A stretch of 64,000 bases of DNA from a virus, in IMG/VR virus record IMGVR_UViG_3300028831_000155, positions 6,725-70,724 of that record; one strand, 5' to 3'. How positions within the stretch are numbered: position 1 is the stretch's first letter; the number at the start of each line of letters is the position of its first letter. A program made the position numbers and the translations under genes. The notes beneath the pieces are model-generated. The model was not told the DNA's origin and ran no database searches. It saw only the letters and a list, made by a program, of their open reading frames with translations. Below, piece after piece: positions 27,574 through 46,539 of the stretch.

Positions 27574-28896
27574 CTACGCAGTCAGCGCAGTGCTCTGCGG
27601 CTCCCTGATTGCAGCATCGAAGACTGCGGCCGCATCACTCCACCTGAATGTCTTGCGCACGTGCTCGATCCCCGCGCGGCCATAGCGCTTGCGGAAGCCG
27701 CTGTTCAGATACAGGTGCTCTATCGCCTCGGTGAAAGCGGGGATATCTGCGGCGAACATATCCTGTCCACCGGGCGCGGTGACCATGAAGCCGCCCTCGA
27801 TCAGCACGCCTCCGGGTCCAACCACCTCGGGAATGGATGACACGTTCTGAGCGATAACCGGCACGCCACAGGCCAGTGCCTCGCCGAGGGTGAGCCCGAA
27901 ACCTTCTCCGAACGAAGTCGTTACAAACAGGTCCGCGGCGTTGTAGAGCGCCACCAGATCGTTGTTGTCCCAGCCGGTCCAGTCGATGAAATCGGTCGGC
28001 AATTTGAAGCGCGGTGCGGTTTCCACGTCCCTCGTGAACAATTCCGGCATCTGCACGCCACCTGCCGCAGGGTCGCTGCCTGCACAATGGAAATGCGCGT
28101 ACACGTCATCGTGGCGCTGCATGACTGGCAGGATGGCCTTCCACGTCGAGGCGAAGTCCTTGCGCCACGAGTTCTTGTCCACTCGCAGGATCAGGAACGA
28201 ATCGGGCGGATAGCCAAACAGTTGCTTGGCTTCACGCTTGGAGGTGATCTTGCGGTCCCGCGACCAGATCGGCTGCTTGTCCGATACCGGATGGAAGACT
28301 TCAGTGTCGATGCCGTGATAGGCGAGGTCCGATCCGGGCATCTGGGCCTGCCCGAACTTGCTCATCGCGATCTGGTGCGATACCTCGAACGTCTCGCCGT
28401 TGACCTTGATCTGGCGCAGAGCATCCCAGCCCTTCGGCCCGTTCAGGCCATCGCGCGGCTGGTAGGTAATCAGCGTCCGGTCCCCGCTATCGAACAGGGT
28501 CTTGTATTTGAGCAGGACCAGTTCAGGATCGAACTTGTTGCGGAACAGGTAATGAGTGCAGATAAACGGGTCGTTGAAGATGACGACCGCGTGCGGCATG
28601 ACCTTGCCCAGCACCTCGACCACCCGCGTGTATCCGTAGATATCCGAGGGCTCGATGCTGCTCGCCATCATCAGGCTGACCTTGGATGGCTTGGAGTCGC
28701 CGCGATAGTTGACGCCTAGAACCGTGACCTCATGGCCGCGATCCACTAGCCGATTGCAAATCTCCTGCGTGGCCCTTCCGAACCCTGTAGACGCCCAATC
28801 TCCAAGCCACAGGACTCTAGCCATTCGGGAAGCAGCGACGGCAGGCACGCGCCCCGCCGTTCGCCAGTAGTTCCTCTGCCTGCTCTCGGCCCGCAT
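27574..28896 (-). CDS. GT-B glycosyltransferase (family 4-like)
   Basis: EGFGLTLGEALACGVPVIA (E-x7-E motif); 440 aa. Confidence 0.7.
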   Translation of the reverse strand: MRAESRQRNYWRTAGRVPAVAASRMARVLWLGDWASTGFGRATQEICNRLVDRGHEVTVLGVNYRGDSKPSKVSLMMASSIEPSDIYGYTRVVEVLGKVMPHAVVIFNDPFICTHYLFRNKFDPELVLLKYKTLFDSGDRTLITYQPRDGLNGPKGWDALRQIKVNGETFEVSHQIAMSKFGQAQMPGSDLAYHGIDTEVFHPVSDKQPIWSRDRKITSKREAKQLFGYPPDSFLILRVDKNSWRKDFASTWKAILPVMQRHDDVYAHFHCAGSDPAAGGVQMPELFTRDVETAPRFKLPTDFIDWTGWDNNDLVALYNAADLFVTTSFGEGFGLTLGEALACGVPVIAQNVSSIPEVVGPGGVLIEGGFMVTAPGGQDMFAADIPAFTEAIEHLYLNSGFRKRYGRAGIEHVRKTFRWSDAAAVFDAAIREPQSTALTA

Positions 28897-29011
28897 CGCC
28901 GATGAACTCGGTTCGGCCCTTCAGGGCATCGAGGTTATCACCCTCAAAACTGCGGCCATCCACCACTAGGTGCATAACCTTGGTCGCTGCATTGAGCACG
29001 TAGGTTTTCAT
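28817..29011 (-). CDS. hypothetical small protein
   Basis: 64 aa; overlaps the end of the glycosyltransferase gene; Cys-containing. Confidence 0.3.
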   Translation of the reverse strand: MKTYVLNAATKVMHLVVDGRSFEGDNLDALKGRTEFIGDAGREQAEELLANGGARACRRCFPNG

Positions 29012-29319
29012 TGCCTTCTCACCACGATCTGATTGGTGGGATCGGTGGTCTGAATGGATGCATCGTTGTAGTGAAGCTCGAATTGGACCTGATACGTGCC
29101 GGGACGGGATAGGTCATCCGCGGCCCACGAGTAGCGGACCCTGCCGGTTGGCTTGTCCACGAAGTCCGCGGCCGCATTGACCGTGTAGCGCTTGTCAGTG
29201 TTCTCGCGCATCTGGAAGCGGACGGTAGCCACATCGGATAGGTCAATCGGATCGCCGCTGACCGAATCTTTGAGTGTGGCATTCAGGTCGGGCTTGGTGT
29301 CGCCCTGCACAAATTCCAT
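29008..29319 (-). CDS. hypothetical structural (Ig-like?) protein
   Basis: 103 aa upstream of and co-oriented with the fibre genes. Confidence 0.35.
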   Translation of the reverse strand: MEFVQGDTKPDLNATLKDSVSGDPIDLSDVATVRFQMRENTDKRYTVNAAADFVDKPTGRVRYSWAADDLSRPGTYQVQFELHYNDASIQTTDPTNQIVVRRQ

Positions 29320-29328: not shown

Positions 29329-30903
29329 CTAACTGACAGGGTTGCTGTCGGTCTCGCTCCAAGGGCCGTAGCGTACATCCACGAAGGCGTCGAGACTGAA
29401 CGAGGTTTCGACTGGTGGCGCTGCCGCGCTGATCTCGGAGTCTAGCGTCAGGCTCGCGCTCTGGCTCGCGAATAGCACCGCATCTGCGGCAACGCTGGTC
29501 TGGGCGCTCCTGAGCAGGACCGAATCTAGGTTGAGCGCCGCAGCCTGCTCGGATTGAATGACCGCATCTAGGTCGAGATGCAGGACTGCCGAAGCACTGA
29601 TGAAGGCATCCAGCGTCAGGCTTGCTGTCTGCGGCGCGGACAGAACCGCATCTAGGTCGAGCGAAACCTGCTGGCTGCCTCGCAGCACTCCATCCAGCGT
29701 TAGGCTCTGTGATCGCGGCGCCTGTAGAACTGCGTCCAGACCCAGTGCTGCAGACTGGGTGACCTTGATAGTCGCATCCGCTGTCAGGCTTTGCGAATGG
29801 CTACGAGACAGAAGCGCATCGACCGTTAGTGTCGCCGAGTGCGTAACCCGCAGGACCGCATTCAGGCTGGCTGAGACGCTCTGGGTGCGGAGCGTGGTCG
29901 CATCTAGGCTCAGGCTGGCGGCTTGTGTCTTACGTACGACCGCATCTGCGACCAGCGAGGCTGACTGGGTTCCTTTGAGGACCGCGTTGAGCGGCAGCGA
30001 GGCAGATTGCGTCTTGGCAATAAGCGCATTCAGGCTGAGTGACGTGCTCTGGGTCCTGAGCAGCGTTGCATCTGCGGTGAGGCTGGCCGTCAGGGTCTTC
30101 TTGAGGACCGCATCAGCCGTCAGTGAGGCCGACTGGATGCTCTTGAGAATCGCGTCAGCGGCTAGCGAGGCCGACTGCGTGTCTTGCAGGATCGCGTCCG
30201 CTGTGAACGAGGTAATGACCGTCGCGCCGGGGCGGAAGACCGCCGCGACTATCGCGGCACCGGATAGGTTGGTGGTGACCGAGAAGGCCGCAACAGCAGT
30301 ATCGGCACCGGAGTTCGAGTTGGTGATGCCGTAGGCGAACGAGTAGTGGTTCTGACTCGATGTACCGTTGTTATTGCCAGCCGCAGTAACGGTGGTGACG
30401 TGGTTCGAGGTGAACGTGTCGTTCGGCGAGCGAGCCGTCGAGCGGCGGTCTGCCACCGCCATGAGCAATAGACAAGCACTGGCAGGATCGGCGCCAGACA
30501 GGGTGACTGTGGTTGGTGAGGCCGAGGCGGTGCCCGATCCATCTGCCACATCCAGCGAAGAAACCGCACCTGAGTACTCGGCCAGTTGCGCGGCGATGAC
30601 GCCAGAGGTGATGGCCGCGATAGTCGGAGCAGCATCAGAGCCGAGCGCGACCTTGGCATAGATCGTGGCCGAAGCGTTGGTGCCCGCTATCTGCTTGGCA
30701 ATGAACCAGCCATCAGGCGTGGTTGGCAGGGTGGCAACGCCCTCGACCGATACGAAGCAGACCAGCAGGTTGCCAGCGGTGCGGTTCTCGGATACTCCGA
30801 AAGTCGGGCTGACGGCATTACCCGCGGTGCCCTGCGTGGCAGTCCCGATGGTCCCAACCAATGCGATTGCCACTACACGCCTCCCCGCACGCGGCGATAC
30901 CAC
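29329..30903 (-). CDS. fibre protein with 14-aa tandem repeats (about 19 units)
   Basis: 524 aa; C-terminal half built from SASLTADAVLKxTQ-type units. Confidence 0.55.
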   Translation of the reverse strand: MVSPRAGRRVVAIALVGTIGTATQGTAGNAVSPTFGVSENRTAGNLLVCFVSVEGVATLPTTPDGWFIAKQIAGTNASATIYAKVALGSDAAPTIAAITSGVIAAQLAEYSGAVSSLDVADGSGTASASPTTVTLSGADPASACLLLMAVADRRSTARSPNDTFTSNHVTTVTAAGNNNGTSSQNHYSFAYGITNSNSGADTAVAAFSVTTNLSGAAIVAAVFRPGATVITSFTADAILQDTQSASLAADAILKSIQSASLTADAVLKKTLTASLTADATLLRTQSTSLSLNALIAKTQSASLPLNAVLKGTQSASLVADAVVRKTQAASLSLDATTLRTQSVSASLNAVLRVTHSATLTVDALLSRSHSQSLTADATIKVTQSAALGLDAVLQAPRSQSLTLDGVLRGSQQVSLDLDAVLSAPQTASLTLDAFISASAVLHLDLDAVIQSEQAAALNLDSVLLRSAQTSVAADAVLFASQSASLTLDSEISAAAPPVETSFSLDAFVDVRYGPWSETDSNPVS

Positions 30904-33900
30904 GTGCCAGCCGAGAGCGGGTCAACGATGGTCAGGCGCGCCGCGTTGCCGCAGTATGCGATTGGGACTCCACTGGGCGGGAATGGCTGCCACGTGGCTC
31001 CGTCAAAGTATTCCCAGTTGGCCGTATCAATAGTGGTCCGATAATCACGGTAATTCGGACCGTTGAAACTTGGTGTCTGATCGAGTTCGATCTCGAACTG
31101 CATGGGCAGTACCGAGTTCGGCATCTGGAAGGTCAGGACCGGCGTGCCGCTGATCGGGTCGCCGTCTGGCGGGCTGATCCACGTCGGCTGCCCAATCAGG
31201 ACGATGACCGCATCAAAAGTCAGGCTGCGGCGATGGACTCCGTAGTCGAACTCGGCGTAGATGAAATCGGCGGCCAACTCAGCGGTGATGGCGCTCGTGG
31301 TGAATTCGGCAGAAATCCCTGAGACTTCCAAGTCAGCGACGAGCGTCGCAACAGAGAGTTCGGCACTGATGGCCGCCGCAGAAATATCGGCGCTGATGTG
31401 GGAGGGATGAATCCCCGCGATCCACGCCGAGAGGGTTAGGCTCTTGCTCTCGGTGGCCCTGAGAACCGCGTCAGCGGTAAGTGCCTGATTGACTGCGGCG
31501 CTGATGATCGCATCGAGTCGCAGTGTGGCCTGCGTCGCACCACTGATCGTGGCATCCAGCGTGAAACTGGTGCTCTGGCTGCGGAAAACAATTGCGTCCG
31601 CAGTGAGAGAACGCTTCTGAACACGGAGCAGGACCGCATCGAGAGTGAGGGCAACGGTGGGCGGTACGAGGACCGCATCGAGCGTAAGAGAGGCACTTCG
31701 CGGGGACAGGATTACCGCATCGGCGGTGAAGGCACCTGTGCGCCCCTTGCGAAGCACCGCATCCGCCGTGAGGGCGGCGGAGAATGTTCTCTTTACAACG
31801 GCATCAACGGTGAGCGAAGCGCTTTGCGCTCGCCGCAGAACCGCGTCGAGTGTGAATGTAACAGATTGCGTCCGCTTTGCAATAGCGTCGAGCGTTAGGC
31901 TCGCGCTTTGGGTGCGGAACAGGACCGCATCGACCGTCAGGTTATGAGTGGCCGATGTTGAAATCGACGCATCTAGCGTCAGTGATGCACTGCGGCCTGC
32001 CTTTATGACCGCATCGGCATTCAGGCTGGCAGCCTGCGTGCGCAGGATTACCGCATCGGTAGTGAGAGCCGCAGATTCGGTCGCTCGAATGACCGCATCG
32101 AGTATCAAAGCGGCGTTTTGGGTCGCCTTTGTAACGGCGTCGAGGTTGAGTGCGGCGCTCTGGGTTCGGAGGAGTACCGCGTCGGTCGTTAGGGCCGCAG
32201 ACTCAGTGGCCTTGAGAACTGCGTCCAGACTGAAGCCGGTAACACCGACGCCTTGGACCCAAGCGTTGAGATTGAGGCTGGCGCTCTGCGTGACACGGAT
32301 GACCGCATCTAGGGTCAACCGTGGACTGATGACCGCATCGAGGCTCAGGCTCGCGGTCTCGGTTGTCTTGATTACGGCGTCGAGCGTGAAGCTCGGCATC
32401 AGTACCGCGTCGAGGCTTAGAGCAGCGGCCTGCGTTCGGAATAGAACCGCGTCTGCGGTCATCACCGCCGACTGGCCGCGCAGGATCACCGCATCCGCTG
32501 TGAGGGCGGCCGTCTGAGTGACACGCAGAATCGCGTCAGCAGTCAGGCTGGCGGCTTCGATACGCTCGATGACAGCATCGAGGGTTAGCGAGGCGCTTTC
32601 GGTCGCCTTCAGCACCGCGTCCGCTGTGAAAGCGGCGGTCTGCGTGTGCAGGATTACAGCGTCGAGGCTCAGGCTTGCCGATTGGGTCCTGAGCAGAACG
32701 CTATCGAGCGTGAGAGTCGCAGTCTGACTACGCAGGATGACTGCATCAGCCGTCAGCGCCGCGCTCTGAGTGACGCGCAGAACCGCGTTGAGGGTGAACG
32801 AGGCTTGCTGCGTACCGGCCGCGATAACCGCGTCGAGAGTGAACGAGGCGGTGTGACCGATCTGCATGGTCGCCACGTCGCTGGTCTGCGGCGATTCAGC
32901 AGTTGTTCGATTGAAACTCCCGGTGCGGGTTGCTACATCAGAAGTCAGCGGCGACTCAGCAGTGGTGCGACTGAAGGTTGCAGTGCGAGTCGCTACGTCG
33001 GAAGTGGTCGCACTCTCTGTGTCAGTCCTGTTGAATGTGCCGATGCGTGTAGCCGCGTCTGAAGTAGTCGGCGACTCCGAATCAGCCCTGTTGAAAGTGC
33101 CGATTCGCGTGGCTACGTCGCTGGTAGTCGGAGACTCAGATGTAGTACGACTGAATCCGACCTGCCGAGTGGCGACATCGGCCGTAGTCGGCGTCTCGGC
33201 CGTTGTGCGAGAGAAGGTGCCGGTACGTGTCGCTACGTCAGAACTTGTCGGCGACTCGTTCTCGTTGCGGCTTTCACCCTCGACCGCCAGCGCCGAGTCA
33301 GAGGTGGTGGGCGCCTCTGAGGTGGTGCGATTGAAGGTCCCGGTTCTGGTGGCTGAATCGGATGTAGTCGGTGATTCAGACGTGGACCGCGGGAAGCCGA
33401 CCGACCGTGTGGCTGCATCAGAAGTGGTCGGCGCTTCAGCGCTGGTGCGACTGAAGGTGCCGGTTCGAGTAGCAGCATCGGAGGTCAGCGGCGATTCACT
33501 GGTGGTGCGCGAGAACGTGCCCGTCCTCGTCGCCACGTCCGAGGTGGTCGGAGACTCACTGGTAGTTCGATGAAGACCGACTACACGGGTGGCCGCATCA
33601 CTGCTGGTAGGCGCTTCAGTGGTAGTGCGTGTGTAGCCCACCGACCGCGTAGCAACGTCTGAAGTTGTGAGCGCCTCCGCGGTAGTCCTAGAAAGAGTGG
33701 ACGTTCGGGTAGCAACATCAGAAATGGTCGGGGCTTCTGAAGTGGTGCGGCTGAACGTACCAGTGCGCGTCGCCGCATCAGAACTAGTCGGCGCTTCCGA
33801 GGTCGTTCTCTTGAACGCGCCTGTTCTGGTGGCTACATCGGCGGAAGTTGGGGCTTCGGCAGTAGTGCGAGAGAACGTACCTGTTCTGGTCGCAACATCG

Positions 33901-34079
33901 GAACTAGTCGGTGCCTCGGCTGCAGTACGGCCGAACGTACCAGTACGGGTGGCAACGTCTGAGGTGGTGGGCGCCTCTGTAGTAGTCGCCTGCGCGTTCT
34001 GGGGCCCGCTAACAGGCTGAGTTGGAGGCAGCCGTTGAATAAACGGCCCGCGGCGAAATAGGCCACGAGAACTCGCCAC
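30873..34079 (-). CDS. giant fibre protein: about 19 Ser/Thr-rich 20-aa repeats (APTSSDVATRTGTFSRTTAE) + about 38 14-aa repeats (SASLTLDAVLxRTQ) + C-terminal globular domain
   Basis: 1068 aa; 60-nt and 42-nt tandem DNA repeats are visible on both strands. Confidence 0.6.
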   Translation of the reverse strand: MASSRGLFRRGPFIQRLPPTQPVSGPQNAQATTTEAPTTSDVATRTGTFGRTAAEAPTSSDVATRTGTFSRTTAEAPTSADVATRTGAFKRTTSEAPTSSDAATRTGTFSRTTSEAPTISDVATRTSTLSRTTAEALTTSDVATRSVGYTRTTTEAPTSSDAATRVVGLHRTTSESPTTSDVATRTGTFSRTTSESPLTSDAATRTGTFSRTSAEAPTTSDAATRSVGFPRSTSESPTTSDSATRTGTFNRTTSEAPTTSDSALAVEGESRNENESPTSSDVATRTGTFSRTTAETPTTADVATRQVGFSRTTSESPTTSDVATRIGTFNRADSESPTTSDAATRIGTFNRTDTESATTSDVATRTATFSRTTAESPLTSDVATRTGSFNRTTAESPQTSDVATMQIGHTASFTLDAVIAAGTQQASFTLNAVLRVTQSAALTADAVILRSQTATLTLDSVLLRTQSASLSLDAVILHTQTAAFTADAVLKATESASLTLDAVIERIEAASLTADAILRVTQTAALTADAVILRGQSAVMTADAVLFRTQAAALSLDAVLMPSFTLDAVIKTTETASLSLDAVISPRLTLDAVIRVTQSASLNLNAWVQGVGVTGFSLDAVLKATESAALTTDAVLLRTQSAALNLDAVTKATQNAALILDAVIRATESAALTTDAVILRTQAASLNADAVIKAGRSASLTLDASISTSATHNLTVDAVLFRTQSASLTLDAIAKRTQSVTFTLDAVLRRAQSASLTVDAVVKRTFSAALTADAVLRKGRTGAFTADAVILSPRSASLTLDAVLVPPTVALTLDAVLLRVQKRSLTADAIVFRSQSTSFTLDATISGATQATLRLDAIISAAVNQALTADAVLRATESKSLTLSAWIAGIHPSHISADISAAAISAELSVATLVADLEVSGISAEFTTSAITAELAADFIYAEFDYGVHRRSLTFDAVIVLIGQPTWISPPDGDPISGTPVLTFQMPNSVLPMQFEIELDQTPSFNGPNYRDYRTTIDTANWEYFDGATWQPFPPSGVPIAYCGNAARLTIVDPLSAGTWYRRVRGGV

Positions 34080-34208: not shown

Positions 34209-35060
34209 CTACCCGGTTGTGGTGACCGTCGAAGTCACGGTCAAGGTGTCCGTGTTCACCAGAACCGCATCAGCATTCAGTACGGCTTCGAAGACCAAGA
34301 CTCCGCCAGCGGTCGTGTTCAACGCGGTGAACAGACCCATCTTGTGAATAGTCACCGAACTGGTCGAGGTGAATAGGTGCTGCATGGTGTAGTTGTTGGT
34401 GCCGCCCGAGTGAGCGAAAGTCGCAATTGCTCGCTTGAGGTCTGCGCCCGTCTGCTCCGTGGCAAGCGTGGTGTCAGCAGCAGATGCGGGGTTCGTATCC
34501 GCCGTCAGGCCCATGAAGCGCGGCGAGCAGGTGGGAGCGATGAAGTAGCCGTTGGTAGCAGCAGGGGTGGTGCCTGCGGTGTCGTTCACCAGCCACCACT
34601 GGTCCACGGTCACCACTGTGGCTGAGTTGGTGCCGACGTTGCCGTACACCGGAGCCGTGGTCAGGCCCGTGACCGGGCACCAGATCGTCCAGCCCTTGTA
34701 CTGGTCTGTGGTCATTCCACCGCCAGAGGGCGTGGCAGAAGTGGCAGAGGAAGCGGTCAGTGCTCCAGATTTGGCAGGTGAGTAGCCAAAAGCCGCATCC
34801 CACAGGTCACGGCCCACGTTGGTCAGCAGGTTATAACTGACACCGAGGTCCTCGAACGTCCCATCGGCATGAGTGACGAGGGCGTGGACAGCATCAGGTC
34901 CGAGATGCAGGGAATGCTCGACCTTGCGATTACGCATGATCGAGACTTCAGCGATATCGGAGGCGTGCAGGTGCTCGATACGCGTGCTGACCTCGCCGCC
35001 GAGAACAATCTTGGGATGTGCCATGGGTAGGTCCTTTCGGTACAGGGGATGACGGCGCAT
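34209..35060 (-). CDS. putative fibre tip / receptor-binding-like protein
   Basis: 283 aa, Thr/Gly/Asn-rich beta-type composition; true start probably the ATG at 35024 (MAHPK...). Confidence 0.35.
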   Translation of the reverse strand: MRRHPLYRKDLPMAHPKIVLGGEVSTRIEHLHASDIAEVSIMRNRKVEHSLHLGPDAVHALVTHADGTFEDLGVSYNLLTNVGRDLWDAAFGYSPAKSGALTASSATSATPSGGGMTTDQYKGWTIWCPVTGLTTAPVYGNVGTNSATVVTVDQWWLVNDTAGTTPAATNGYFIAPTCSPRFMGLTADTNPASAADTTLATEQTGADLKRAIATFAHSGGTNNYTMQHLFTSTSSVTIHKMGLFTALNTTAGGVLVFEAVLNADAVLVNTDTLTVTSTVTTTG

Positions 35061-35113: not shown

Positions 35114-35461
35114 CTAACCGCGGCTTAGTAAATGCTCTGGTAAGAACCCAACTGCACCATCGTCGGTCACGATCTCCCAGTGCTCCTCGGTTCGCTTGCC
35201 GACCGCGATGCCTTCTTCGTCGTAGACCCGCTCGGCCTGCTCAAAGTGACGGATGGTGCCCTTCACCTTGCGAAGGACTGGTTCGCCAGCCTTACCGTAG
35301 GAATCGGAGTCTGGCGGCAATTGCTCATGGACCTTCTCGTAGACACCATGCTGCAGAGTGAAGGTGCCCTTGTCTCCATCTTTGGCAGCCTTGCCATCCT
35401 TGGTCTTGAGAGCCTTGGCTGGCATCAGGTGACCTCCTCGAACTCTAGATCGGCATTCCAC
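35114..35461 (-). CDS. hypothetical protein
   Basis: 115-aa ORF; internal Met at MPAKALK is the likely start. Confidence 0.3.
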   Translation of the reverse strand: MECRSRVRGGHLMPAKALKTKDGKAAKDGDKGTFTLQHGVYEKVHEQLPPDSDSYGKAGEPVLRKVKGTIRHFEQAERVYDEEGIAVGKRTEEHWEIVTDDGAVGFLPEHLLSRG

Positions 35462-35919
35462 GATGTGAGGGTCGTAGGTGTGCCCTGAATCTGTAAGAGG
35501 AAGGTGAGGTCAGGCCCAACCAGCGGTCGATCCTCAGGTAGAAAGATCAATTCCCAGCCATTTAGGTTGTTGAATCCCCGCTGCCCCATGGCGGTAAAGG
35601 TGCCTGCCCCGTTGGCACTGGCATTCGTTCCGCAAGTGGCCGCGGCGTTGGTGGTCCCACCTGCGATGGCGGAAGCAACCGAGTTGATCGCTGTTGGTGC
35701 CGGAGTGGTACTCGTGAACGTCCCGAATGCGCTTGCTTTCAGCCCCCAGCGAACGGCCAGTTCTTGGCTGGTAGAGGTCCCATGCTGGCCGAGGCTCATA
35801 CGATAGATGCGTAAGACTGAGGCACGGCTCGTGTAAGTAGTCGCGGCACGGATGGTAATGACTTCGCCATTAGCGATTACGGTCGCCGCCGCCATCGTTA
35901 CGGTGTACAGAGATGCCAT
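35425..35919 (-). CDS. hypothetical structural protein
   Basis: 164 aa, Thr/Ala-rich. Confidence 0.4.
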   Translation of the reverse strand: MASLYTVTMAAATVIANGEVITIRAATTYTSRASVLRIYRMSLGQHGTSTSQELAVRWGLKASAFGTFTSTTPAPTAINSVASAIAGGTTNAAATCGTNASANGAGTFTAMGQRGFNNLNGWELIFLPEDRPLVGPDLTFLLQIQGTPTTLTSWNADLEFEEVT

Positions 35920-37256: not shown

Positions 37257-39089
37257 CTATTTCACCATTCCCGCCATAGAAGTGGCCGTGGCATCCGCGG
37301 CCTGATACGGCAAACCGAAGATGTCCTCGGTGGTCCGTAGCAAGCCGAAGTGATTGTATGCGGTGGCGTCGGTGAAAGCGGCCTTCGCCATGCTGCCCGC
37401 GAAGACGGTAAGCACCTGATTGCCCTGCGAGCCGTCGTCCTCATCCCACGTCAGGATCACCAGACACTTATCGACCGTGCAGGCGGGGCTATTGAGAATA
37501 GTGGGCACGTGCTGGCTCAACCATGTATCCCCAGTGCTTATCGAGCAGTCGTGAGTATCGTCGCAGTTATCGGGCTTGACGAAGGACCAGTTCGGAGTGG
37601 TCGCGGCGCTGGCTAGATCGTTGGTCAGGTTCGGGAACATCGGGACCACGTGCGTGTAACACAGGCTACCCGGTGCGGTGTTCTGCCACATATCATCGAA
37701 ATAGATCAACGGATCATGGTGCGCCCGGTAGGTGCCGGGATTGGTCAGCGTGCAGGGTGCAGGCATGTTCTCGAAATAGCCCTTGGCGCTCAGGCCCTTG
37801 GCTAGGAACTCATCGAGCAGGCTGGTCCCCGTGATGTGGCACGTGCTCGACGGATCACAGTCGGTGGTGATGCCGTGGTTCGACCCGGCATACAGATCGA
37901 GGTAATTGGGCAGCGACGGATGCATGATCGCGAAGTAGTTCGAGGCATGCGCCCATGTAGCCACCAGACCGTTGGTGTACGGCGTGGCGCTGGTTCCGAA
38001 CACCTCGCTGTATGAGTGGTTTTCCATCACGATCACGAAGACGTGCTTGGCGCCCGAACTAGGAGTGCTTGTAGGGGTGGGAGTGGGCGTGAAGGTGGAA
38101 CTCGGGCTTGCGGTTGGTGAGGGTGATGCCGTCAGGGTTGGTGTGGGAGTGGGCGTGAACGTGCCGGAGGCCGATGAGGTAGGCGTCGGGGTGGGAGTGC
38201 CGGTGGGATTCTCGACCGTGATCCAATCGACCTGAATCTCGGAGTTTCCAGAAGTTCCAGATGGGCATCCTGTCGCGTGGCACTCCTGCTGCAAGACGAC
38301 GTGCTTGAGGGTATCGGGCAGCGTGGTGCTGCTACCTGAATAGGTCCAGACCACGGTCCCGTCGATGCTCGCGGTCACGACATGGTTGAGCCGCGTGAAC
38401 TGCAGCGTGTGGAACTGGCTCAGGTCAACGCTATAGGCATGGGCGACCTGCTGATTAGTCGAGGAGTAGTGCAGGTACGTCGAGCAGCCAGTGGTTACGT
38501 CAGCCTCGCAGTAGTCTTCCTCACCGCCAGCGGGCCACGATGAGTCATCGTCCGGCCAGCGCATGGGAATGACGTAGTGGGCGCTGACGCCCGAGTCCAC
38601 GATGCGGAAGCGCAGGGTGACTCTCTGGTCAACCGTCGAGAAGCCGTTGAGCCGCATGCCGCCCGTGTACCAAGCCGCCCCGCAGTTCCCAGAGGGCAAG
38701 TATGACTCTAGGAGGTGGAGGTAGCCACCCGTAACGAAGTCCTGCGAGGGTGCGGCACAGTTATGGGCATTGCTCCCGTAGGGGCCGTTGTAGAGACCCC
38801 AGTGGCTAGGTATCCCGCCGCTGTTGAACTCGTCGTCTACGACTAGGGACCAGCCGTTCGATGGTGATGGGCTGGGCGACGGTGATGCCGTGAGCGTAGG
38901 AGAGGCGGTAGGTGACGCCGTAACCGAAGGTGTGGGTGTCGGTGTCAAAGAGGCTGTCGGTGTAGGGGTAACGCAATGCGGGTTGCTCGGATGGAGTTGA
39001 CAAAAGTCTGGCGGCCTTGCCGCTACCGAAGATGTAAAGCTGATGACCAACACCACGACGGCGATGATCGAGAGGGCTGCTCGGGCCAC
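37257..39089 (-). CDS. secreted two-domain enzyme: GH16-like glucanase/lectin domain + phosphoesterase (PLC/acid phosphatase family) domain joined by Pro/Thr linkers
   Basis: Signal peptide; WSLVVDDEFNSGG...W and EEDYCE (ExDxxE) fit the GH16 pattern; KHVFVIVMENHSYSEVFG matches the phosphoesterase family N-motif; TPTPTPT linkers. Confidence 0.55.
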   Translation of the reverse strand: MARAALSIIAVVVLVISFTSSVAARPPDFCQLHPSNPHCVTPTPTASLTPTPTPSVTASPTASPTLTASPSPSPSPSNGWSLVVDDEFNSGGIPSHWGLYNGPYGSNAHNCAAPSQDFVTGGYLHLLESYLPSGNCGAAWYTGGMRLNGFSTVDQRVTLRFRIVDSGVSAHYVIPMRWPDDDSSWPAGGEEDYCEADVTTGCSTYLHYSSTNQQVAHAYSVDLSQFHTLQFTRLNHVVTASIDGTVVWTYSGSSTTLPDTLKHVVLQQECHATGCPSGTSGNSEIQVDWITVENPTGTPTPTPTSSASGTFTPTPTPTLTASPSPTASPSSTFTPTPTPTSTPSSGAKHVFVIVMENHSYSEVFGTSATPYTNGLVATWAHASNYFAIMHPSLPNYLDLYAGSNHGITTDCDPSSTCHITGTSLLDEFLAKGLSAKGYFENMPAPCTLTNPGTYRAHHDPLIYFDDMWQNTAPGSLCYTHVVPMFPNLTNDLASAATTPNWSFVKPDNCDDTHDCSISTGDTWLSQHVPTILNSPACTVDKCLVILTWDEDDGSQGNQVLTVFAGSMAKAAFTDATAYNHFGLLRTTEDIFGLPYQAADATATSMAGMVK

Positions 39090-39704: not shown

Positions 39705-40460
39705 CTAGATACGAGTAAGAGTGAATGGTCCAGATTTGCCAGAGATGAGGTAATAGCCCTCGTAATACCCAGCCTGAATCAAGTAGTAGCCGGGTAGAGT
39801 GCTGGTCGCGGTCCCGGCTCCGCTGGCCCTAGCCCAATATCCACTCTTGCTGCCGGTGATGGCGCGGGTATAGCGAGCGATATGGAAGCCAGTCACGGTG
39901 CCGGGGCCGACCGTAACCTTGAAGGTGCCGGTCGGAGACGGCGCTGGTGCGGGCCGGATCAGCGATGAGCCAGCGTACACGCCGCCAGTCACGTACTGCT
40001 CAGGATTGTGGAACAGGCTGACCCCGTAACTATTGACCGTGCGGCAGGCAGTGTGCTTGTGCGGTCCGGTGGCGACCCCAGTGGCGCCTTCATAGCCAAG
40101 CAGTTGCCCGCGTTTGACGCTCTGGCCACGGCTGACCGCAGCGGAATTCAGGTGGCAGAAGGTGTAGTACATCCCGCCGTAAATCTTCACGTCCACGATG
40201 ATGCCGCCACCAGCGAAAGTGCCGGGGTTCGGCGCCCAGCCCTCGTACTGGACCACGCCTGCCTCCATCGCGTACACCGGGGTGCCTAGTCCGTCAGACC
40301 AGTCGGTGCCTGCGTGGTAGTGCTGCGCATAGGAAGAACCGTAGTACTGGCTGAAGGCGCAGGTCTGAACGCCAACATGCCAGTAGGCGTATTCGAGGTA
40401 ATTGGACTGATTGCCAAAATGCTGGGTCAGAATGCCCAGAGGCAGCAGCAGGCCACTCAC
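39705..40460 (-). CDS. M23-family peptidase (endolysin-type) with a C-terminal domain
   Basis: HYHAGTDW (HxxxD) and GPHKH (HxH) zinc-ligand motifs. Confidence 0.65.
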   Translation of the reverse strand: MSGLLLPLGILTQHFGNQSNYLEYAYWHVGVQTCAFSQYYGSSYAQHYHAGTDWSDGLGTPVYAMEAGVVQYEGWAPNPGTFAGGGIIVDVKIYGGMYYTFCHLNSAAVSRGQSVKRGQLLGYEGATGVATGPHKHTACRTVNSYGVSLFHNPEQYVTGGVYAGSSLIRPAPAPSPTGTFKVTVGPGTVTGFHIARYTRAITGSKSGYWARASGAGTATSTLPGYYLIQAGYYEGYYLISGKSGPFTLTRI

Positions 40461-40723: not shown

Positions 40724-41148
40724 TAGCCTCTCATCAGCGAATCAATGTCGTGGTCATCACACACCAGACCATCCTGCGTGATCCACACTCCATCACGCGT
40801 CCCGTCCGCTCGCTTGGCACCGATGCCGTAGGCCACCCATTCGATTCCTTGGAACGGGCCATTCAGATCGGTGGTGTGGCGCTTGTAGTAGAAGGGTTGG
40901 TCGTCTTCGTAGACCTCTATCCCAAACACCACCGTGTCATTCGACTTGCGGCACAGATACCAGCGCGACCGAACGCCGCGTATCCAGTCCTTCCAAATCT
41001 GCGCCCAGCCCGGATAGTCGAGGTCGATCTTGGTGTTCTGCGTGTTCTCACGGACGATGAACAGGAAATATGGGTTGTCGCCTACCCATTCGTGATGAAC
41101 CTCGCCCACGGCCACATCGGCGGCTTGAACGCTCTCATGTACGGTCAC
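40723..41148 (-). CDS. hypothetical protein
   Basis: 141 aa, W-rich. Confidence 0.4.
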   Translation of the reverse strand: MTVHESVQAADVAVGEVHHEWVGDNPYFLFIVRENTQNTKIDLDYPGWAQIWKDWIRGVRSRWYLCRKSNDTVVFGIEVYEDDQPFYYKRHTTDLNGPFQGIEWVAYGIGAKRADGTRDGVWITQDGLVCDDHDIDSLMRG

Positions 41149-41996
41149 TGCTTGAGCCTGTGGAATGCCTGCAGCGGGGTGACCGTGCTCAGTCCCATGC
41201 GGTTATTCGCCTTGCGGCGCTCCTTGACGACTGCCTTGTCACGCAGGGCCAGTTCCACTAGAAAGTCACGCTCGGTGATCTCCCGCTCTGCGACATGCCC
41301 GATCTTGATGCGGGTGTCCACGAAGATGTGACAGCCCGCGGCCTTGGCATCCTGACAGAATCGCAGGTCCTCTCCGAGTAGACCCTGCCACTTGAAGAAC
41401 TCGGGTGGCCCAGTCCTCATCCGATCTTCGAGAGAGGGGATCGGGTTCCCGGCGATCTTCTCGAACACGCGCTTATGAATCACGGCGAAGGCGAGGCCGG
41501 TGGCGTCCACCTCGGCAATGTCGGCATCCCATGACTCGACGTAGTTGTAGAGCCCCGCATCGGCGGACTCACGCATGTACATGGTCGGCTGGAACGGCTC
41601 GGAGCGCCGGAAGCACAGAGCGCCCAGCATGTCGAGATCGTATTCCTCGCGGGTCGCGATCAGCCTACCCACCGCGTCGGGCTGCCACACCATATCGTCG
41701 TCAATGAAACAAATCCAATCGCCCTCAAGCCTCTGCACTGCCTCATTACGGGCCAGTGTCAGTACTGAGGAGCCGTGGATAATCAGCGGCCCTTTGACGT
41801 AGTACTCCGGCTTGAGCCATGTCCAGTCTGTACCGACCAGTGACATGACTGAGGAAGCTGGCATGCGATCCAGCATCGGGATCGCCACCGTGCCCGCGCA
41901 GACGCCGCCGCCACCCTTGCGAGTCGAGTAGATCATGTGCTCGCCGTCAGGATTTGGCGTTAGCGGTTGCTTCACCGTGATATCATTGTAGGCCAC
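41145..41996 (-). CDS. GT-A glycosyltransferase (family 2-like)
   Basis: ICFIDDDMVWQPD (DxD motif); 283 aa. Confidence 0.65.
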   Translation of the reverse strand: MAYNDITVKQPLTPNPDGEHMIYSTRKGGGGVCAGTVAIPMLDRMPASSVMSLVGTDWTWLKPEYYVKGPLIIHGSSVLTLARNEAVQRLEGDWICFIDDDMVWQPDAVGRLIATREEYDLDMLGALCFRRSEPFQPTMYMRESADAGLYNYVESWDADIAEVDATGLAFAVIHKRVFEKIAGNPIPSLEDRMRTGPPEFFKWQGLLGEDLRFCQDAKAAGCHIFVDTRIKIGHVAEREITERDFLVELALRDKAVVKERRKANNRMGLSTVTPLQAFHRLKQ

Positions 41997-42065
41997 CGCA
42001 TGGCTCTGCTCCGCTCATCAGCGCAAGGCAACGCAGCGCCAATCTCCGTCTCGCTCCGCATCGGA

Positions 42066-42986
42066 CTAAGCTGCGTGGGCACGGCTTAGGCTGTCCATCA
42101 CTTTCTGAAGCCCTTGATAAAGGGTCACTCGCGGTCGGTAGTATTGCAGCATCTCACTCGGGTCCGCATAGCGCGCATGCACACCTTCGGGCTTCGATTC
42201 ATCGGTCACGATCTTCGGCTTGTAGCCCGCGATTTCTGCAGCGGCCTTGGCGATCTCAACGAAGGTGACTGGCACCCCAGTCCCGATGTTCATGGGCACG
42301 TAGCCCAGCACGCCCCGGCTCAGGCGTACCACGGTGGCTGCCACGAGGTCTTTGACATGGATGAAGTCACGGCTCTGGTGGCCCGAGCCCCAGACCTGTA
42401 GCGGGTCCTCATGGTTCAAGGCCCGTTGGCAGATGGCGGTGACCGGATAGGAAGCCGCCTGTCCCTCGCCGTAGCCCGAGAAGGGCCGCAGCACCAGCGT
42501 GTTGAGGCCGAACTTCTCCGACGCCATCCACGCTAGATACTCGGCCATCATCTTCTCGACGCCGTACCACTCGTCAGCCCGAGCCCACTCGGTCTGGGAG
42601 GGATGGAACATGGACTCCGCCAGTTTCATGCCCTTGTCGGACTGGTACTTGATGCCGTACACCGCCGAGGACGAGGGATAGACGGCAACCTTGGTATGCC
42701 CGGCCGCCCAAGAGAAGAAGGCCGCATCCAATCCCGCGTTACCGACCTGCTGGAACGGGTCGTTCTCGATCACTTCGCGGCCACCGACCACCGCCGCGAA
42801 ATGCAGGGCGATGTCGAACACGCGCCCGGAAGTGAATATGTCCATGGCGTCGATGTGCAGCACGCCCTGTGGGCGTTCCTTGGCAGTATCGACTGCCACC
42901 ACTTGGGTATTCGGCTGTGAATGGTAGTGATCGAGGAAGTGGCGACCCAAGAAGCCCGCCGCTCCCGTAATCAGGACTTGGCTCAC
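42066..42986 (-). CDS. NAD-dependent sugar epimerase/dehydratase (SDR family)
   Basis: ITGAAGFLGRHF (GxxGxxG) and YGVEK (YxxxK) motifs. Confidence 0.7.
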   Translation of the reverse strand: MSQVLITGAAGFLGRHFLDHYHSQPNTQVVAVDTAKERPQGVLHIDAMDIFTSGRVFDIALHFAAVVGGREVIENDPFQQVGNAGLDAAFFSWAAGHTKVAVYPSSSAVYGIKYQSDKGMKLAESMFHPSQTEWARADEWYGVEKMMAEYLAWMASEKFGLNTLVLRPFSGYGEGQAASYPVTAICQRALNHEDPLQVWGSGHQSRDFIHVKDLVAATVVRLSRGVLGYVPMNIGTGVPVTFVEIAKAAAEIAGYKPKIVTDESKPEGVHARYADPSEMLQYYRPRVTLYQGLQKVMDSLSRAHAA

Positions 42987-43033
42987 GACTTTCGGGTGGG
43001 GGGCGGGCGGCCCACCACCACGCCCCCCATGTT

Positions 43034-43360
43034 CTAAGAGACGACCACGTCGGCCGAGGCGATCTGTGAATCGTCCGAGGTGTCACGCAGAGTCAATGTC
43101 CACGTGCCAGCAGCCGGGAAAATCACGCTGTTCCATTCGGCCGTGCCGGATGGGTTGGTGCTGAACGGATTGCTCAACAGATCATCCGAGCCTGACTTAC
43201 GAAGGCGGAAGCGGTACACGATCTCCGGCTCGGTCGGATATGTGGACGCACTGAAGGCGCCACTATCGTTGCTCGGCTCATCAACACAGGTGATGTTGCA
43301 CGCGGTCAACTTGGCGGTGATGTGTCCTGAAGTGGGGCTGATAGCGATTCCTGCGGCCAT
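43034..43360 (-). CDS. hypothetical small beta-rich protein
   Basis: 108-aa ORF. Confidence 0.3.
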   Translation of the reverse strand: MAAGIAISPTSGHITAKLTACNITCVDEPSNDSGAFSASTYPTEPEIVYRFRLRKSGSDDLLSNPFSTNPSGTAEWNSVIFPAAGTWTLTLRDTSDDSQIASADVVVS

Positions 43361-43369
43361 AATTACCTC

Positions 43370-44128
43370 CTAGAGCCATTCAGATCGGGTCCAGACTGCG
43401 GCGGGATCGTAACGCTCGATCAGTTCGCCACGAAACAACTTCGCACGTTCATCGTCATAGCGGTAGTAGACACAGCGCGTGCATTGCACGTACTTGAAAG
43501 ATTTTCGAGTAGTTTCCACTAGGTCGTGTACGGCGCAGCCGTTGATCTTGGGCGGTAGCCACGGTGCCCGTTCGCGGGTATCGCCATGCTTGAGTTCGAT
43601 GGAGTGCCACGAGAACGGCGGCTCCAGAATATAGACCGCGTGCTCCTCAGAGCGCTGCATCAGACGCGAGCCGAGTTGCTGGTCCTCTGACTCGTGCAGG
43701 CCATTGAAGGCCATGTCGAAAGCGCCAAAGTCCTTGATGAACTGCGTATCGGCGGCGAACATGCCGCCATAGCAGGACTGGTAACCGTGCCAGTGCGGAG
43801 GTTCGGGATGCTCGCGGCTCTCGCCGTCCTTCATGTTGAGCGCCATGATCTGGTCTGCGTTGTAGTTGGCGAAGTCCACAAGGCGATGGTTGCCCCACAA
43901 GTACTCGTCAAGGTTTTCGATCACGTCACCGATCATGGAATGCGGCGCGATCTGGTCATCGCCTTGGATCACAATCGTGTCGCACTTCGCGGCGAAGATG
44001 CCCACGTTCTGACGCAGTGCCACATCGAGATAGCCAATCGGATACCTCTCCGATGAGAAGCGCAGCAGCCGCACCTTCAGCCCGTAGTTTGAAAAGCGAT
44101 GCGCCTCATTGGTCACCACCGTCACCAC
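43370..44128 (-). CDS. putative glycosyltransferase / sugar-modifying enzyme (uncertain)
   Basis: 252 aa within the glyco island; possible IVIQGDDQ DxD-like motif. Confidence 0.3.
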   Translation of the reverse strand: MVTVVTNEAHRFSNYGLKVRLLRFSSERYPIGYLDVALRQNVGIFAAKCDTIVIQGDDQIAPHSMIGDVIENLDEYLWGNHRLVDFANYNADQIMALNMKDGESREHPEPPHWHGYQSCYGGMFAADTQFIKDFGAFDMAFNGLHESEDQQLGSRLMQRSEEHAVYILEPPFSWHSIELKHGDTRERAPWLPPKINGCAVHDLVETTRKSFKYVQCTRCVYYRYDDERAKLFRGELIERYDPAAVWTRSEWL

Positions 44129-44202
44129 ATCGGGCTGCGGATCGCACTTACTGAGTGAGTAGACCAGCCGCTCGACAGGTTCCTGCCGTAACGACGGGAT
44201 AA

Positions 44203-45114
44203 CTACTTCAACGCCGATTCGTAGACCTTCACCAGTTTGGCCGCGACTTTGGCTTCATCGTGGTACTTCTCGACATGGAAGCGACCCAGAGCACCGAAAT
44301 GCTTGCGTAGAACCGGATCGGCGGCCATCTCACTGATTCTCTGCCGCAATCGGCTCTGATCGGTGAGGAGAAATGGCAGATACCCGTACACGTAATTCAT
44401 CAACATGAGGATCGCCGGGTCAAACGCGCCAGAAATGACCGGAATCCCCATCGCCATCGCTTCGATGGCCGAGAGGGCATAGCCGATGTGGAGTTGATCG
44501 TAAAAGATATCTGCTTGGGACTTGCGCTGGAGACACTCGTCGTGGCTGGTCCACTCGATGAGGTCCACGTCGAGGTCGAGTTCTGCCACTGCACCCAGAA
44601 AGTCATCAGTGTTCTTGACTCCTCTGTGTGTCGGTGAATGAGCGATCTTCAGTCTGCGGCGCTTGGCTAACGACCGCATGGCCGCCAGTCTAGGGATATC
44701 GACCGGATTGGGGAGCCATTCTGCGTCAGGGTCGATCAAGGTCAGGTCGATAGTCGAGACGATGTGCTGAACCCCGTATTCCTTGGTGGTTCGCAGAATC
44801 TCGGCGGTGTTATCGACTCGGAACTCGGTGCCGTGTGAGTGAAACACCATCGGCTTGTCACGCCAGTTCGGAAACTCACCGGCCGCAGACCAGCGCTCCA
44901 TGATATGGATTAGGTCGGCTTCATCCCAGAGCCGCAATAATTCCTCTGTAACCGGCTCACCCTTGGGCCAGAAGATGTCCTGCTCGTAGCCGATGTAGTT
45001 CTGATGCCGCGTCACCGAACGGGCAGTCCAGTCGGTGTATCGCTCCAAGGCGTGCTTCAGAGCGATCCCGACGCCACCCACATCCTCGTGGTCGCTGAGG
45101 ATGAGTGATCTCAT
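44203..45114 (-). CDS. GT-B-type glycosyltransferase
   Basis: LSAIEAMAMGIPVISG resembles the GT4 C-terminal motif. Confidence 0.5.
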   Translation of the reverse strand: MRSLILSDHEDVGGVGIALKHALERYTDWTARSVTRHQNYIGYEQDIFWPKGEPVTEELLRLWDEADLIHIMERWSAAGEFPNWRDKPMVFHSHGTEFRVDNTAEILRTTKEYGVQHIVSTIDLTLIDPDAEWLPNPVDIPRLAAMRSLAKRRRLKIAHSPTHRGVKNTDDFLGAVAELDLDVDLIEWTSHDECLQRKSQADIFYDQLHIGYALSAIEAMAMGIPVISGAFDPAILMLMNYVYGYLPFLLTDQSRLRQRISEMAADPVLRKHFGALGRFHVEKYHDEAKVAAKLVKVYESALK

Positions 45115-45761
45115 TCCACGCGGCGACCCACTCCGATCACCATATCTGGGTAGGGTCCCATGTTGAAGTGGAACGCTTCTTCAAGGCGGTGCCCGTTGGC
45201 CGAGAACCAGTTGTAGAAATCAGAGAGTTGATAGGCCCACCGATGACCCGGCTCGTCATCCGAGGCATCTCCGACCAGCGGATGGCCGATGACGCTCCAT
45301 CGGGCTCGCGGCATCCAATCTGCGGCAACCTTGAGTGGATCGGTGAGGTGCTCAAGCACCTCAGTCAGGATCAGAACGTCGGAATCCCTCGGCTCGACAT
45401 CCTCGACCTTGGACAGGATGAAGTCGAGGTCCGGCCATCGTTCGGCGCAGATGGTCTGAGCCACCGGCACCACGTCCACACCATGGACCTCATGGCCGTT
45501 GCTGAACGGGCCAGAGATATCCGCCGAGCCACAGCCCAATTCCCAAATGGTGCCCGGAAACTCCACCGCGTCGAGGCAGCGCCACACCAGTCCGCGGGCC
45601 ACCGCGATCCGCCACGGCTGAGTCTCTACGAATAGCGGAGCGTCATTGCGGTCAAGATGAACCTGTACCACGTCGAGTTCGGGAGGTTTGGCAAGCCGCA
45701 TCAGGCGGCCAGTATGCGCTTGAGGGTCTCCACATCCTTGGCAAATCCGTTTGCCATCCAT
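45111..45761 (-). CDS. class I SAM-dependent methyltransferase
   Basis: IWELGCGSADIS (motif I) and acidic motif II VLILTEVLEH. Confidence 0.55.
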   Translation of the reverse strand: MDGKRICQGCGDPQAHTGRLMRLAKPPELDVVQVHLDRNDAPLFVETQPWRIAVARGLVWRCLDAVEFPGTIWELGCGSADISGPFSNGHEVHGVDVVPVAQTICAERWPDLDFILSKVEDVEPRDSDVLILTEVLEHLTDPLKVAADWMPRARWSVIGHPLVGDASDDEPGHRWAYQLSDFYNWFSANGHRLEEAFHFNMGPYPDMVIGVGRRVE

Positions 45762-46390
45762 CTCGCGAAGGCGGCCTTGTCGTGGTCGATCATCTCGCTA
45801 CTGTTCACACGCTGGTAGCCCATATCCATCGCGGCTTTCCCGGCGAACGGATGCAGGTGCTCGATCACCACCTCTGGGAAGTAGAACAGCCGTCCTGTAG
45901 CCGATCCCAGCGAGCGCCAAGCGTTGTCCACCCACAGGTGCTTGAGCACTGGCGGCGCCATCCAACCCAGCGCGCTGATGATCGAGGAACTCATCACGAC
46001 TTGAGTCGGCAGGTTCGCACCCTGATATAGATCATTGCCGTAGGCAAAGCCGCCACCTCTCCTGTCGAGTTTGGTGACGAATATCTTGTCCCAGCCCTTG
46101 GTGCGAGGGCGATGATCGTCTCCGAAGAAACCGATGTAGTTGTAGACCCCAATCGCTGAGTGCAGCGTGGCGGCCGCATTCAGCGCACGGACCATGGAGC
46201 CAATCGACTCGTTGATCTCGATATTGCCCGAGGGCAGCAGTTCAAGATAGGCGTCCAGTTCGGGATCATCCTCATCGACCACGAACAGGCAGGTCGTGTG
46301 CTTGAACTTCTTGGTTGCCTCGAACTCGGTCAGCAGTTCCAGCGCGTTGGTGGGTCGCCCTCTGCTCGGGACTAGGACGAGAAGAGACAT
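45701..46390 (-). CDS. GT-A-like glycosyltransferase
   Basis: LVLVPSRGRP N-terminus and FFGDDH DxD-like motif. Confidence 0.45.
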   Translation of the reverse strand: MSLLVLVPSRGRPTNALELLTEFEATKKFKHTTCLFVVDEDDPELDAYLELLPSGNIEINESIGSMVRALNAAATLHSAIGVYNYIGFFGDDHRPRTKGWDKIFVTKLDRRGGGFAYGNDLYQGANLPTQVVMSSSIISALGWMAPPVLKHLWVDNAWRSLGSATGRLFYFPEVVIEHLHPFAGKAAMDMGYQRVNSSEMIDHDKAAFARWMANGFAKDVETLKRILAA

Positions 46391-46392
46391 CT

Positions 46393-46539
46393 AGAGCGCC
46401 GGAAAATGTACCTGCGCCAAGATCAGGAGGGCCACTCCCAACGCCCACCACTTGGGAGCCAGCGTGCCCAGAGCCACCGAGAACGACTCGAACAGGAAAC
46501 AGATCGCCGCGGCTATCAGGAGAATCAGAACCAGCATCA
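46393..46539 (-). CDS. small membrane protein (48 aa; below the ORF-track cutoff)
   Basis: MLVLILLIAAAICFLFESFSVALGTLAPKWWALGVALLILAQVHFPAL, two TM helices. Confidence 0.3.

Follow-up and report, generated by a model that had tools for sequence, protein, structure and literature searches.

In bacteria, the serine-rich repeat adhesins are served by the GT4 enzymes GtfA or SdgA and the 19-residue beta-helix repeats of AIDA-I-type proteins by heptosyltransferases, with AIDA-I being a case in which a folded beta repeat can carry O-glycans on serine and threonine. Eukaryotic mucin PTS domains are proline-rich, disordered and conserved mainly in composition, and viral fibres are built on repeats such as the 15- to 16-residue units of the adenovirus and reovirus triple beta-spiral or the repeats of phage tail fibres. 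To our knowledge, a few mycobacteriophages are the only phages in which phage-encoded virion glycosylation has been shown to date, and the modified proteins are those of the capsid and tail tube. Glycosylation of the virions of mycobacteriophages Che8, Corndog and Myrna is described in summaries of the work (Freeman et al. 2023, as summarised in PMC11600133 and PMC12363180), and B736L of chlorovirus NY-2A (3OY2/3OY7) is a virus-encoded retaining GT-B enzyme thought to be active in viral glycan synthesis (PMC4691112). Here, we describe a 64,000-nucleotide stretch of DNA (the window; positions 6,725 to 70,724 of IMG/VR record IMGVR_UViG_3300028831_000155) from an uncultured soil tailed phage whose late-block genes are co-oriented, and which encodes a 1068-residue fibre-like protein carrying an array of Thr/Ser-rich 20-residue repeats. 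The explanation that best accounts for the whole of the evidence, to which we assign a probability of roughly 0.55, is that the array is the folded shaft of a fibre-like virion protein and is plausibly glycosylated.

A strictly periodic 20-residue repeat array

The repeat gene and the parts of its product are listed below by position in the window.

30873-34079, minus strand: 1068-residue repeat protein, fibre-like (stop codon included, GTG start; from the open reading frame list and translation)
33978-34079, minus strand: N-terminal 34 residues, a candidate attachment peptide that contains (M)..RGLFRR.P
32838-33977, minus strand: 19 units of the 20-residue Thr/Ser-rich repeat, residues 35-414
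31395-32855, minus strand: about 35 units of a 14-residue repeat (SASLTLDAVILRTQ), residues 409-894
30876-31193, minus strand: C-terminal globular all-beta domain, residues ~963-1068 (AlphaFold2 predicted local distance difference test score, pLDDT, 84-96)

A sequence-only reading of the window had recognised a tandem array in the N-terminal part of this protein, and the array is real, although its bounds move from 32780-33990 to those given here. The 19 units have the consensus EAPTTSDVATRTGTFSRTTS, and all 18 successive spacings are exactly 20 residues, with zero insertions or deletions. The high Ser/Thr content claimed for the array is also real, at 42% of its 380 residues (Thr 27%, Ser 15%) rather than roughly 45%, compared with 11-14% in this phage's terminase, portal and capsid proteins. 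Pro makes up 4.7% of the array, and Asp, Glu, Arg and Lys together 21%.

The units are not near-identical, as had been proposed. They average 75% identity to the consensus; compared with one another, they are 63% identical in protein and, in DNA, 58% identical on average and 77% at most. Exact DNA repeats within the array reach 17 nt at most, and Tandem Repeats Finder reports just three fragments of 2-4 copies each with 68-78% matches. Where two units share a residue, 65% of the codon pairs use differing codons, and adjacent units that are identical in protein have nonetheless diverged at synonymous sites. Positions E1, D7 and A9 of the unit are invariant, and T10, R11, R17 and F15 nearly so. 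The combination of fixed positions, strict length and apparently saturated synonymous sites points to purifying selection on an old structure. The pattern is not that of selection on composition or of recent homogenisation of the units at the DNA level.

Within each unit, the residues alternate between two faces. The even positions (8, 10, 12, 14, 16 and 18) are 64% Ser/Thr and contain zero Arg. At the odd positions (9, 11, 13, 15 and 17), Ser/Thr amounts to 1%, Ala or hydrophobic residues to 47% and Arg to 37%. As a residue pattern, the alternation across positions 8-18 is the i/i+2 signature of a two-faced beta strand.

The repeat belongs to a large family. A phmmer search with residues 35-414 against 1.84 billion cluster representatives retrieved 1219, 460 and 76 representatives at E<=1e-3, 1e-10 and 1e-30, respectively, mostly in structural proteins of uncultured phages. 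In the family profile (591 units from 150 proteins), position 1 is Asp or Glu in 93% of units, position 7 Asp in 89%, position 9 Ala or Val in 98%, and positions 11 and 17 Arg in 92% and 88%, and the units of the 1068-residue protein fit this profile with a period of exactly 20 residues. Ser and Thr average 29% across the family (range 9-48%), the relatives being richer in hydrophobic residues; with the scaffold positions conserved and the mean Ser/Thr content only 29%, Ser/Thr richness appears to be a lineage feature laid over the scaffold. Within this large family of beta-repeat, fibre-like phage proteins, which has no annotation, the array represents a lineage enriched in Thr and Ser. Laminin_G_3 domains occur in 15 of 56 family members. 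No model in Pfam, PHROGs or NCBIfam covers the 20-residue repeat, and megablast and tblastn searches with the repeat protein against 50,697 phage records returned no match, with the limit that the low-complexity filter may mask repeats.

Predicted fold and copy number

A monomer prediction with AlphaFold2 from a 56-sequence alignment gave 14-residue strands (38-51, 58-71 and so on) separated by 6-residue loops, with pLDDT of 76-84 in the strands of units 1-9. Disorder had been expected from structure prediction, and for these units strands were obtained instead. Several results weigh against a folded shaft: the strand pattern appeared in only one of five AlphaFold2 models, pLDDT fell below 40 for units 10-19, and the hydropathy/charge plot places the array at the boundary between order and disorder (H 0.425 versus 0.420). 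Array model 1 had no match in PDB below E=1, and its six matches in BFVD at E<=1e-3 (TM-scores of at most 0.24, root-mean-square deviation 28-56 Å) were unusable. Neither AlphaFold2 monomer model had a match in PDB at E<0.1, to a fibre shaft or otherwise, and phmmer with the repeat protein found nothing among PDB sequences. Given the selection pattern, the two strand faces, the conservation across the family and the structure prediction, we consider it likely that the array would form a folded beta-strand repeat and not a floppy mucin-like stalk.

The closest relative, contig L005 (IMGVR_UViG_3300025910_000035), encodes an orthologue with 27 units, compared with 19 here. The difference is in whole units, with no insertion or deletion within the register, and landmarks such as the degenerate unit ...ALAVEGESR... 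and the last unit ...DVATMQIGH are kept, so unit number changed during the divergence of the two proteins (about 70% protein identity). The copy-number variation foreseen from the sequence is therefore seen between relatives, but the slipped recombination thought likely to drive it is not supported as an ongoing process. At the DNA level, the units of either phage have only about 60% identity, no two of them share more than 17-18 identical bases, and nothing in these sequences points to recent, frequent or ongoing slippage.

Other parts of the repeat protein and its paralogues

The 14-residue repeats, the C-terminal domain and two paralogues were absent from the sequence-only reading. The 1068-residue protein has 119 homologues, and an identical copy is present on a 4.5-kb soil-metagenome contig. 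Its 14-residue repeat, spaced by exactly 14 residues in 29 of 36 intervals, is common to most of these homologues and has no entry in any library scanned (Pfam, PHROGs, NCBIfam); a Pfam ShlB match to it, found in the 1068-residue protein and a 243-residue paralogue alike, is spurious. AlphaFold2 predicts strands of ~10 residues here, with pLDDT of 50-67. The C-terminal domain is common to 15 homologues (identity 38-51%) and is modelled as a confident beta sandwich, with only weak, non-significant matches in PDB to immunoglobulin (Ig)- and fibronectin type III-like folds. A short linker rich in Ile, Ser and Ala (HISADISAAAISAELSVATLVADLEVSGISAEFTTSAITAEL; within 30876-31394, residues 895-1068; AlphaFold2 pLDDT about 30) joins the 14-residue array to this domain, and the L005 orthologue keeps the linker and lacks the domain.

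At the other end of the protein, the N-terminal motif also opens the L005, L015 and L020 proteins and 12 of 260 family proteins whose architectures otherwise differ. Its recurrence, in the form M..GLFRRPPQPQ, on family proteins that are built differently downstream suggests a common docking peptide.

Two further genes of the window encode proteins with the 14-residue repeat.

29329-30903, minus strand: 524-residue paralogue, an N-terminal globular domain followed by about 20 units of the 14-residue repeat
9648-10379, minus strand: 243-residue third paralogue, about 10 units of the 14-residue repeat, in the tail-distal region

The N-terminal domain of the 524-residue paralogue is 55% identical to that of the protein from L007. 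As listed, the open reading frame of this paralogue overlaps the end of the 1068-residue gene by 31 nt (30873-30903), and on contig L001 the downstream gene is called from the stop codon (4207) of the repeat gene. Together, these two arrangements suggest translational coupling of both repeat proteins.

The structural gene block and the case for a virion location

The genes around the repeat gene are listed below in the order in which they are read on the minus strand.

49741-51294, minus strand: large terminase
48339-49736, minus strand: portal
41145-47466, minus strand: sugar-modification island (PHROGs and Pfam), containing the next six entries
46537-47466, minus strand: protein without assigned function
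45701-46390, minus strand: PHROG glycosyltransferase
45111-45761, minus strand: methyltransferase
44203-45114, minus strand: p303, a divergent GT4-like protein (94% probability in hhalign against the GT4 family; NCBIfam GT4-like matches)
42066-42986, minus strand: NAD epimerase/dehydratase
41145-41996, minus strand: GT2 glycosyltransferase
39705-40460, minus strand: M23 peptidase, between the portal and capsid genes
37257-39089, minus strand: 610-residue protein ending in a phosphoesterase domain (phospholipase C / acid phosphatase, PF04185)
35425-35919, minus strand: p164, a 164-residue conserved partner
34209-35060, minus strand: p283, a 283-residue conserved partner
29008-29319, minus strand: 103-residue BppU_N-like protein (Pfam PF10651, E 1.1e-6; 76% identical in L005, position conserved)
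27574-28896, minus strand: GT4-family (GT-B fold) glycosyltransferase (Pfam Glyco_trans_1_4, 2.4e-18, and Glycos_transf_1)

The order thus runs from terminase and portal through the sugar island, M23 peptidase, 610-residue protein, p164 and p283 to the 1068-residue repeat protein, and continues with the 524-residue paralogue, the BppU_N-like gene, GT4, a 578-residue scaffold-like protein, the major capsid protein and large tail proteins. The sequence-only reading was right in placing the repeat protein in a structural setting with phage glycosyltransferases, as this is a late structural block with several such genes, and wrong in two points of geometry. GT4 is not directly beside the repeat gene but 1977 bp downstream, with the 524-residue paralogue and the BppU_N-like gene between them, and the repeat gene is not upstream of the island, which on the coding strand lies 5' of it and not 3'.

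Family members elsewhere have portal, capsid and tail genes as neighbours, lying after the portal, after tape-measure-type genes or beside the capsid gene. Homologues of p283 adjoin repeat proteins in 33 IMG/VR loci, and lie beside them in about 16 loci recovered independently through a DNA pattern for the repeat. The p164 protein is 77% identical to a protein directly upstream of the repeat gene in L015, a contig whose terminase is only 48% identical, and N-termini resembling that of p164 occur in L005, L008 and L020. To recover these related loci, three aligned p283 proteins served as one query and a degenerate DNA pattern as another; scanning viral contigs with a single p283 or a single repeat sequence gave 0 and 2 loci, respectively, and the 56-sequence repeat alignment was too divergent to serve as a query. 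Neither p283 nor p164 has a match in Pfam, PHROGs, NCBIfam, PDB sequences (for p283, with a profile) or, by tblastn, cultured phages. That p283, p164 and the repeat protein are without relatives in cultured phages counts against the virion assignment, and because of it the assignment is drawn from gene context. On this context, the 1068-residue protein is probably a modular fibre or decoration protein of the virion, of head or tail.

Other features of the window are given here for completeness. Its G+C content is about 60%, and its terminase is at most 30% identical to those of cultured phages. The M23 peptidase and the 610-residue phosphoesterase protein, placed between portal and capsid, occupy an odd site for cell-wall or envelope enzymes, and both may be virion-borne. 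Upstream of the terminase on the minus strand lie genes for an SPFH/Band 7 protein and an HNH endonuclease (56614-57504 and 52250-52747). ARAGORN called an 88-nt tRNA-Thr (anticodon AGT) at 15890-15977 on the plus strand, within a 978-residue minus-strand open reading frame, and this call is probably a false positive. A promoter and terminator scan of 27.5-47.4 kb found sites no commoner than in shuffled sequence; the single operon supposed in the sequence-only reading is possible. A search for the host via genome contigs returned three contigs of metagenome-assembled genomes only, from three phyla and two of them shorter than 3 kb, and was uninformative.

Comparative evidence for glycosylation of the shaft

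The linkage between the repeat gene and glycosyltransferase genes recurs on related contigs. The order in L005 is p283, repeat protein, BppU_N-like protein, GT4 (71% identity), scaffold-like protein and capsid, and in L015 it is terminase, portal, a sugar island (epimerase, GDSL, hexapeptide transferase and GT2), p283, a 1262-residue repeat protein, BppU_N-like protein and GT4, the last being 42-43% identical to the GT4 of the window. A GT4 homologue lies directly downstream of the repeat gene in L050, L115 and L128, a GT4 gene neighbours a family member in L138, a homologue of the GT4-like p303 follows the repeat gene in L020/L074, and a large glycosyltransferase and methyltransferase island lies 2.4 kb downstream at P0077. 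Glycosyltransferase genes (GT4-type or other) lie beside family members on nine other contigs. A 991-residue GT2-methyltransferase-GT4 fusion is encoded on L137 (4627-7602), where its gene immediately follows that of the capsid and precedes P0014 by 2.4 kb. The best solved relative of the window GT4 is chlorovirus B736L (3OY2, E 4e-24).

The Ser/Thr content of family members follows this linkage. Nine glycosyltransferase-linked loci have a median of 0.36, compared with 0.28 for 19 loci that have sufficient flanks and no such linkage (p=0.003 in a one-sided Mann-Whitney test, or 0.002 in a smaller set, uncorrected for relatedness). Pfam annotation of the flanks of seven high-Ser/Thr loci gave three GT4, one GT2, an epimerase and further sugar enzymes, and that of nine low-Ser/Thr loci gave no glycosyltransferase. 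The additional Ser and Thr residues fall on the Thr face and around the predicted loop (TTSEAPTTS), where they occupy unit positions 4, 5, 19 and 20. The pairing of glycosyltransferase and acceptor put forward from the sequence alone is thus backed by GT4 synteny in relatives and by Ser/Thr enrichment of the linked members, but it is not "obvious", since many members have no glycosyltransferase within 10 kb. Glycosylation of the shaft is plausible on this evidence, and the enzyme-substrate idea is a testable hypothesis with moderate comparative support.

Alternative explanations

A serious alternative, which we regard as possible though we do not favour it, is that the folded shaft is unglycosylated and that GT4 and the island modify the capsid, the tail tube, another virion protein or envelope polymers of the host. 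The Thr richness would then reflect only that an exposed face of the sheet has high beta-propensity and is soluble, or that it binds a target directly. A number of findings weigh against glycosylation of the shaft. Published phage virion glycosylation acts on capsid and tail tube (PMC11600133, PMC12363180), and in the window the next genes downstream of GT4 are those for the scaffold-like and major capsid proteins. The cultured Synechococcus phage S-CBS4 (L132, NC_016766) encodes a glycosyltransferase, a galactosyltransferase and an S-adenosylmethionine (SAM) methyltransferase at 6478-16062 and has no such fibre; its layout of portal, two glycosyltransferases, methyltransferase, protease and capsid puts the island in the same position as in the window. 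Contigs L014 and L029 carry GT4 and p283 but no 20-residue repeat protein, and several family loci, some of them Ser/Thr-rich, have no glycosyltransferase within 10 kb (P0030, with a Ser/Thr content of 0.39, P0032, P0066 and P0081). Conversely, L115 is GT4-linked yet has a Ser/Thr content of just 0.23, and the Mann-Whitney association ignores shared ancestry and incomplete flanks.

Scored against NCBIfam equivalogs, GT4 fell far below every cut-off, and with a generic GT4 and sub-cut-off scores the acceptor is not inferable from sequence. A tblastn search with GT4 against the 50,697 phage records (E<=1e-5) matched only 10 records (23-51% identity), which are faecal contigs, cyanophages and phages of Tetrasphaera and Pontimonas; the four that covered >=80% of the query were 23-25% identical, and no mycobacteriophage was matched. 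Glycosylation of the shaft is favoured over the modification of other targets by three observations: the major capsid protein has no Ser/Thr-rich extension (14% Ser/Thr), GT4 comes straight after the repeat gene on several diverged contigs, and Ser/Thr content follows glycosyltransferase linkage. A stronger version, in which GT4 and the island are dedicated to this substrate and build a glycan brush on the Thr ladder and the TTSEAPTTS loops, with Ser/Thr content having co-evolved with such enzymes across the family, we hold to be doubtful.

A disordered, mucin-like Pro/Thr/Ser stalk, densely O-glycosylated and encoded by near-identical 60-nt repeats prone to slippage, is the architecture that the sequence-only reading had proposed, and it is improbable. 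It would agree with the 42% Ser/Thr, the borderline hydropathy and charge, the low AlphaFold2 confidence in units 10-19 and the 19 versus 27 units among relatives. It conflicts with the low Pro (4.7%) and the 21% of charged residues, with a strict unit length and invariant charged and aromatic residues (E, D, R, R and F) next to apparently saturated synonymous sites, and with alternating faces and predicted strands (pLDDT 76-84). Relatives in the family carry the same repeat with hydrophobic residues and 9-30% Ser/Thr, and in neither phage does an exact DNA repeat exceed 17-18 nt.

Finally, that the 1068-residue protein is no virion component but, for example, is secreted or displayed on the host surface during infection would fit the lack of any homologue with experimental localisation and of any assignment by PHROG, Pfam or NCBIfam, but is very improbable given a gene between portal and capsid in one co-oriented block, relatives after tape-measure or beside capsid genes, and Laminin_G_3 and BppU_N-type neighbours typical of phage fibres and baseplates.

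A proposed model

We propose that the array would be the proximal shaft of a fibre- or decoration-like virion protein, made of 19 copies of an ancient 20-residue repeat. Each unit would contribute a beta strand of roughly 14 residues and a 6-residue loop (TT[SA]E[AS]P), with E1, D7, R11, R17, A9 and F15 keeping the units in register and Thr and Ser filling the opposite strand face and the loops. The N-terminal peptide would probably dock the protein to the particle, together with p283 and p164, the 14-residue repeats would lengthen the rod, and the Ig-like C-terminal domain would sit at its tip. The exposed Thr/Ser surface may plausibly be O-glycosylated by the co-oriented, syntenic GT4 and the upstream sugar island, which would give a glycan-coated fibre. 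Of this model, the make-up of the protein, its family, the pattern of selection and the linkage of the genes are shown by the sequences, and the fold, the place in the virion and the glycosylation are inferred from them.

Whatever the outcome for glycosylation, the 20-residue and 14-residue repeats, p283 and p164 make up a widespread fibre module, represented in at least 1200 sequence clusters and absent from Pfam, PHROGs and NCBIfam, and its description would improve the annotation of soil viromes. If the shaft is glycosylated, a candidate protein O-glycosyltransferase would be available for tests together with a defined peptide scaffold. S-CBS4 offers a tractable system in which to learn what sugar islands between portal and capsid modify.

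Comparison with known systems

The mycobacteriophage system, as far as the two published summaries describe it, resembles this locus in that phage glycosyltransferases with an adjacent methyltransferase are proposed or shown to modify virion proteins, and the window likewise carries GT4, GT2, p303, the PHROG glycosyltransferase, the methyltransferase and the epimerase. It differs in that its acceptors are capsid and tail-tube subunits and not a repeat fibre, and the system of the window is known from its genes alone. If the shaft is glycosylated, the phenomenon would reach fibres and abundant uncultured soil phages. B736L belongs to a eukaryotic giant virus in which capsid glycans are N-linked, and its similarity to the GT4 of the window is mainly in the C-terminal half.

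Mucin PTS domains share with the array only the form of tandem repeats with high Ser/Thr content; the array contains little Pro and keeps charged and aromatic residues at fixed positions, and strands are predicted for it. Viral fibre shafts are alike in their fixed-length strand-turn repeats, elongated rod and globular distal domain, and the 14-residue unit has a period similar to theirs. The 20-residue unit is longer and carries a charged ladder, and the searches gave no significant match in fold or sequence.

The bacterial repeat adhesins correspond in genetic layout, with the gene for a long tandem-repeat surface protein beside that of a dedicated glycosyltransferase. The window has no accessory Sec system, LPXTG motif or autotransporter parts, its unit sequence is unrelated, and its GT4 scores 23.8 bits against the GtfA model TIGR02918 (cut-off 574.6) and 18.5 against the SdgA model NF047880 (cut-off 800). 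Should GT4, the island and the repeat protein nonetheless prove to be an enzyme-substrate pair, phage fibres would gain their first glycosylated example, and the glycosylated repeat adhesins of bacteria a viral counterpart.

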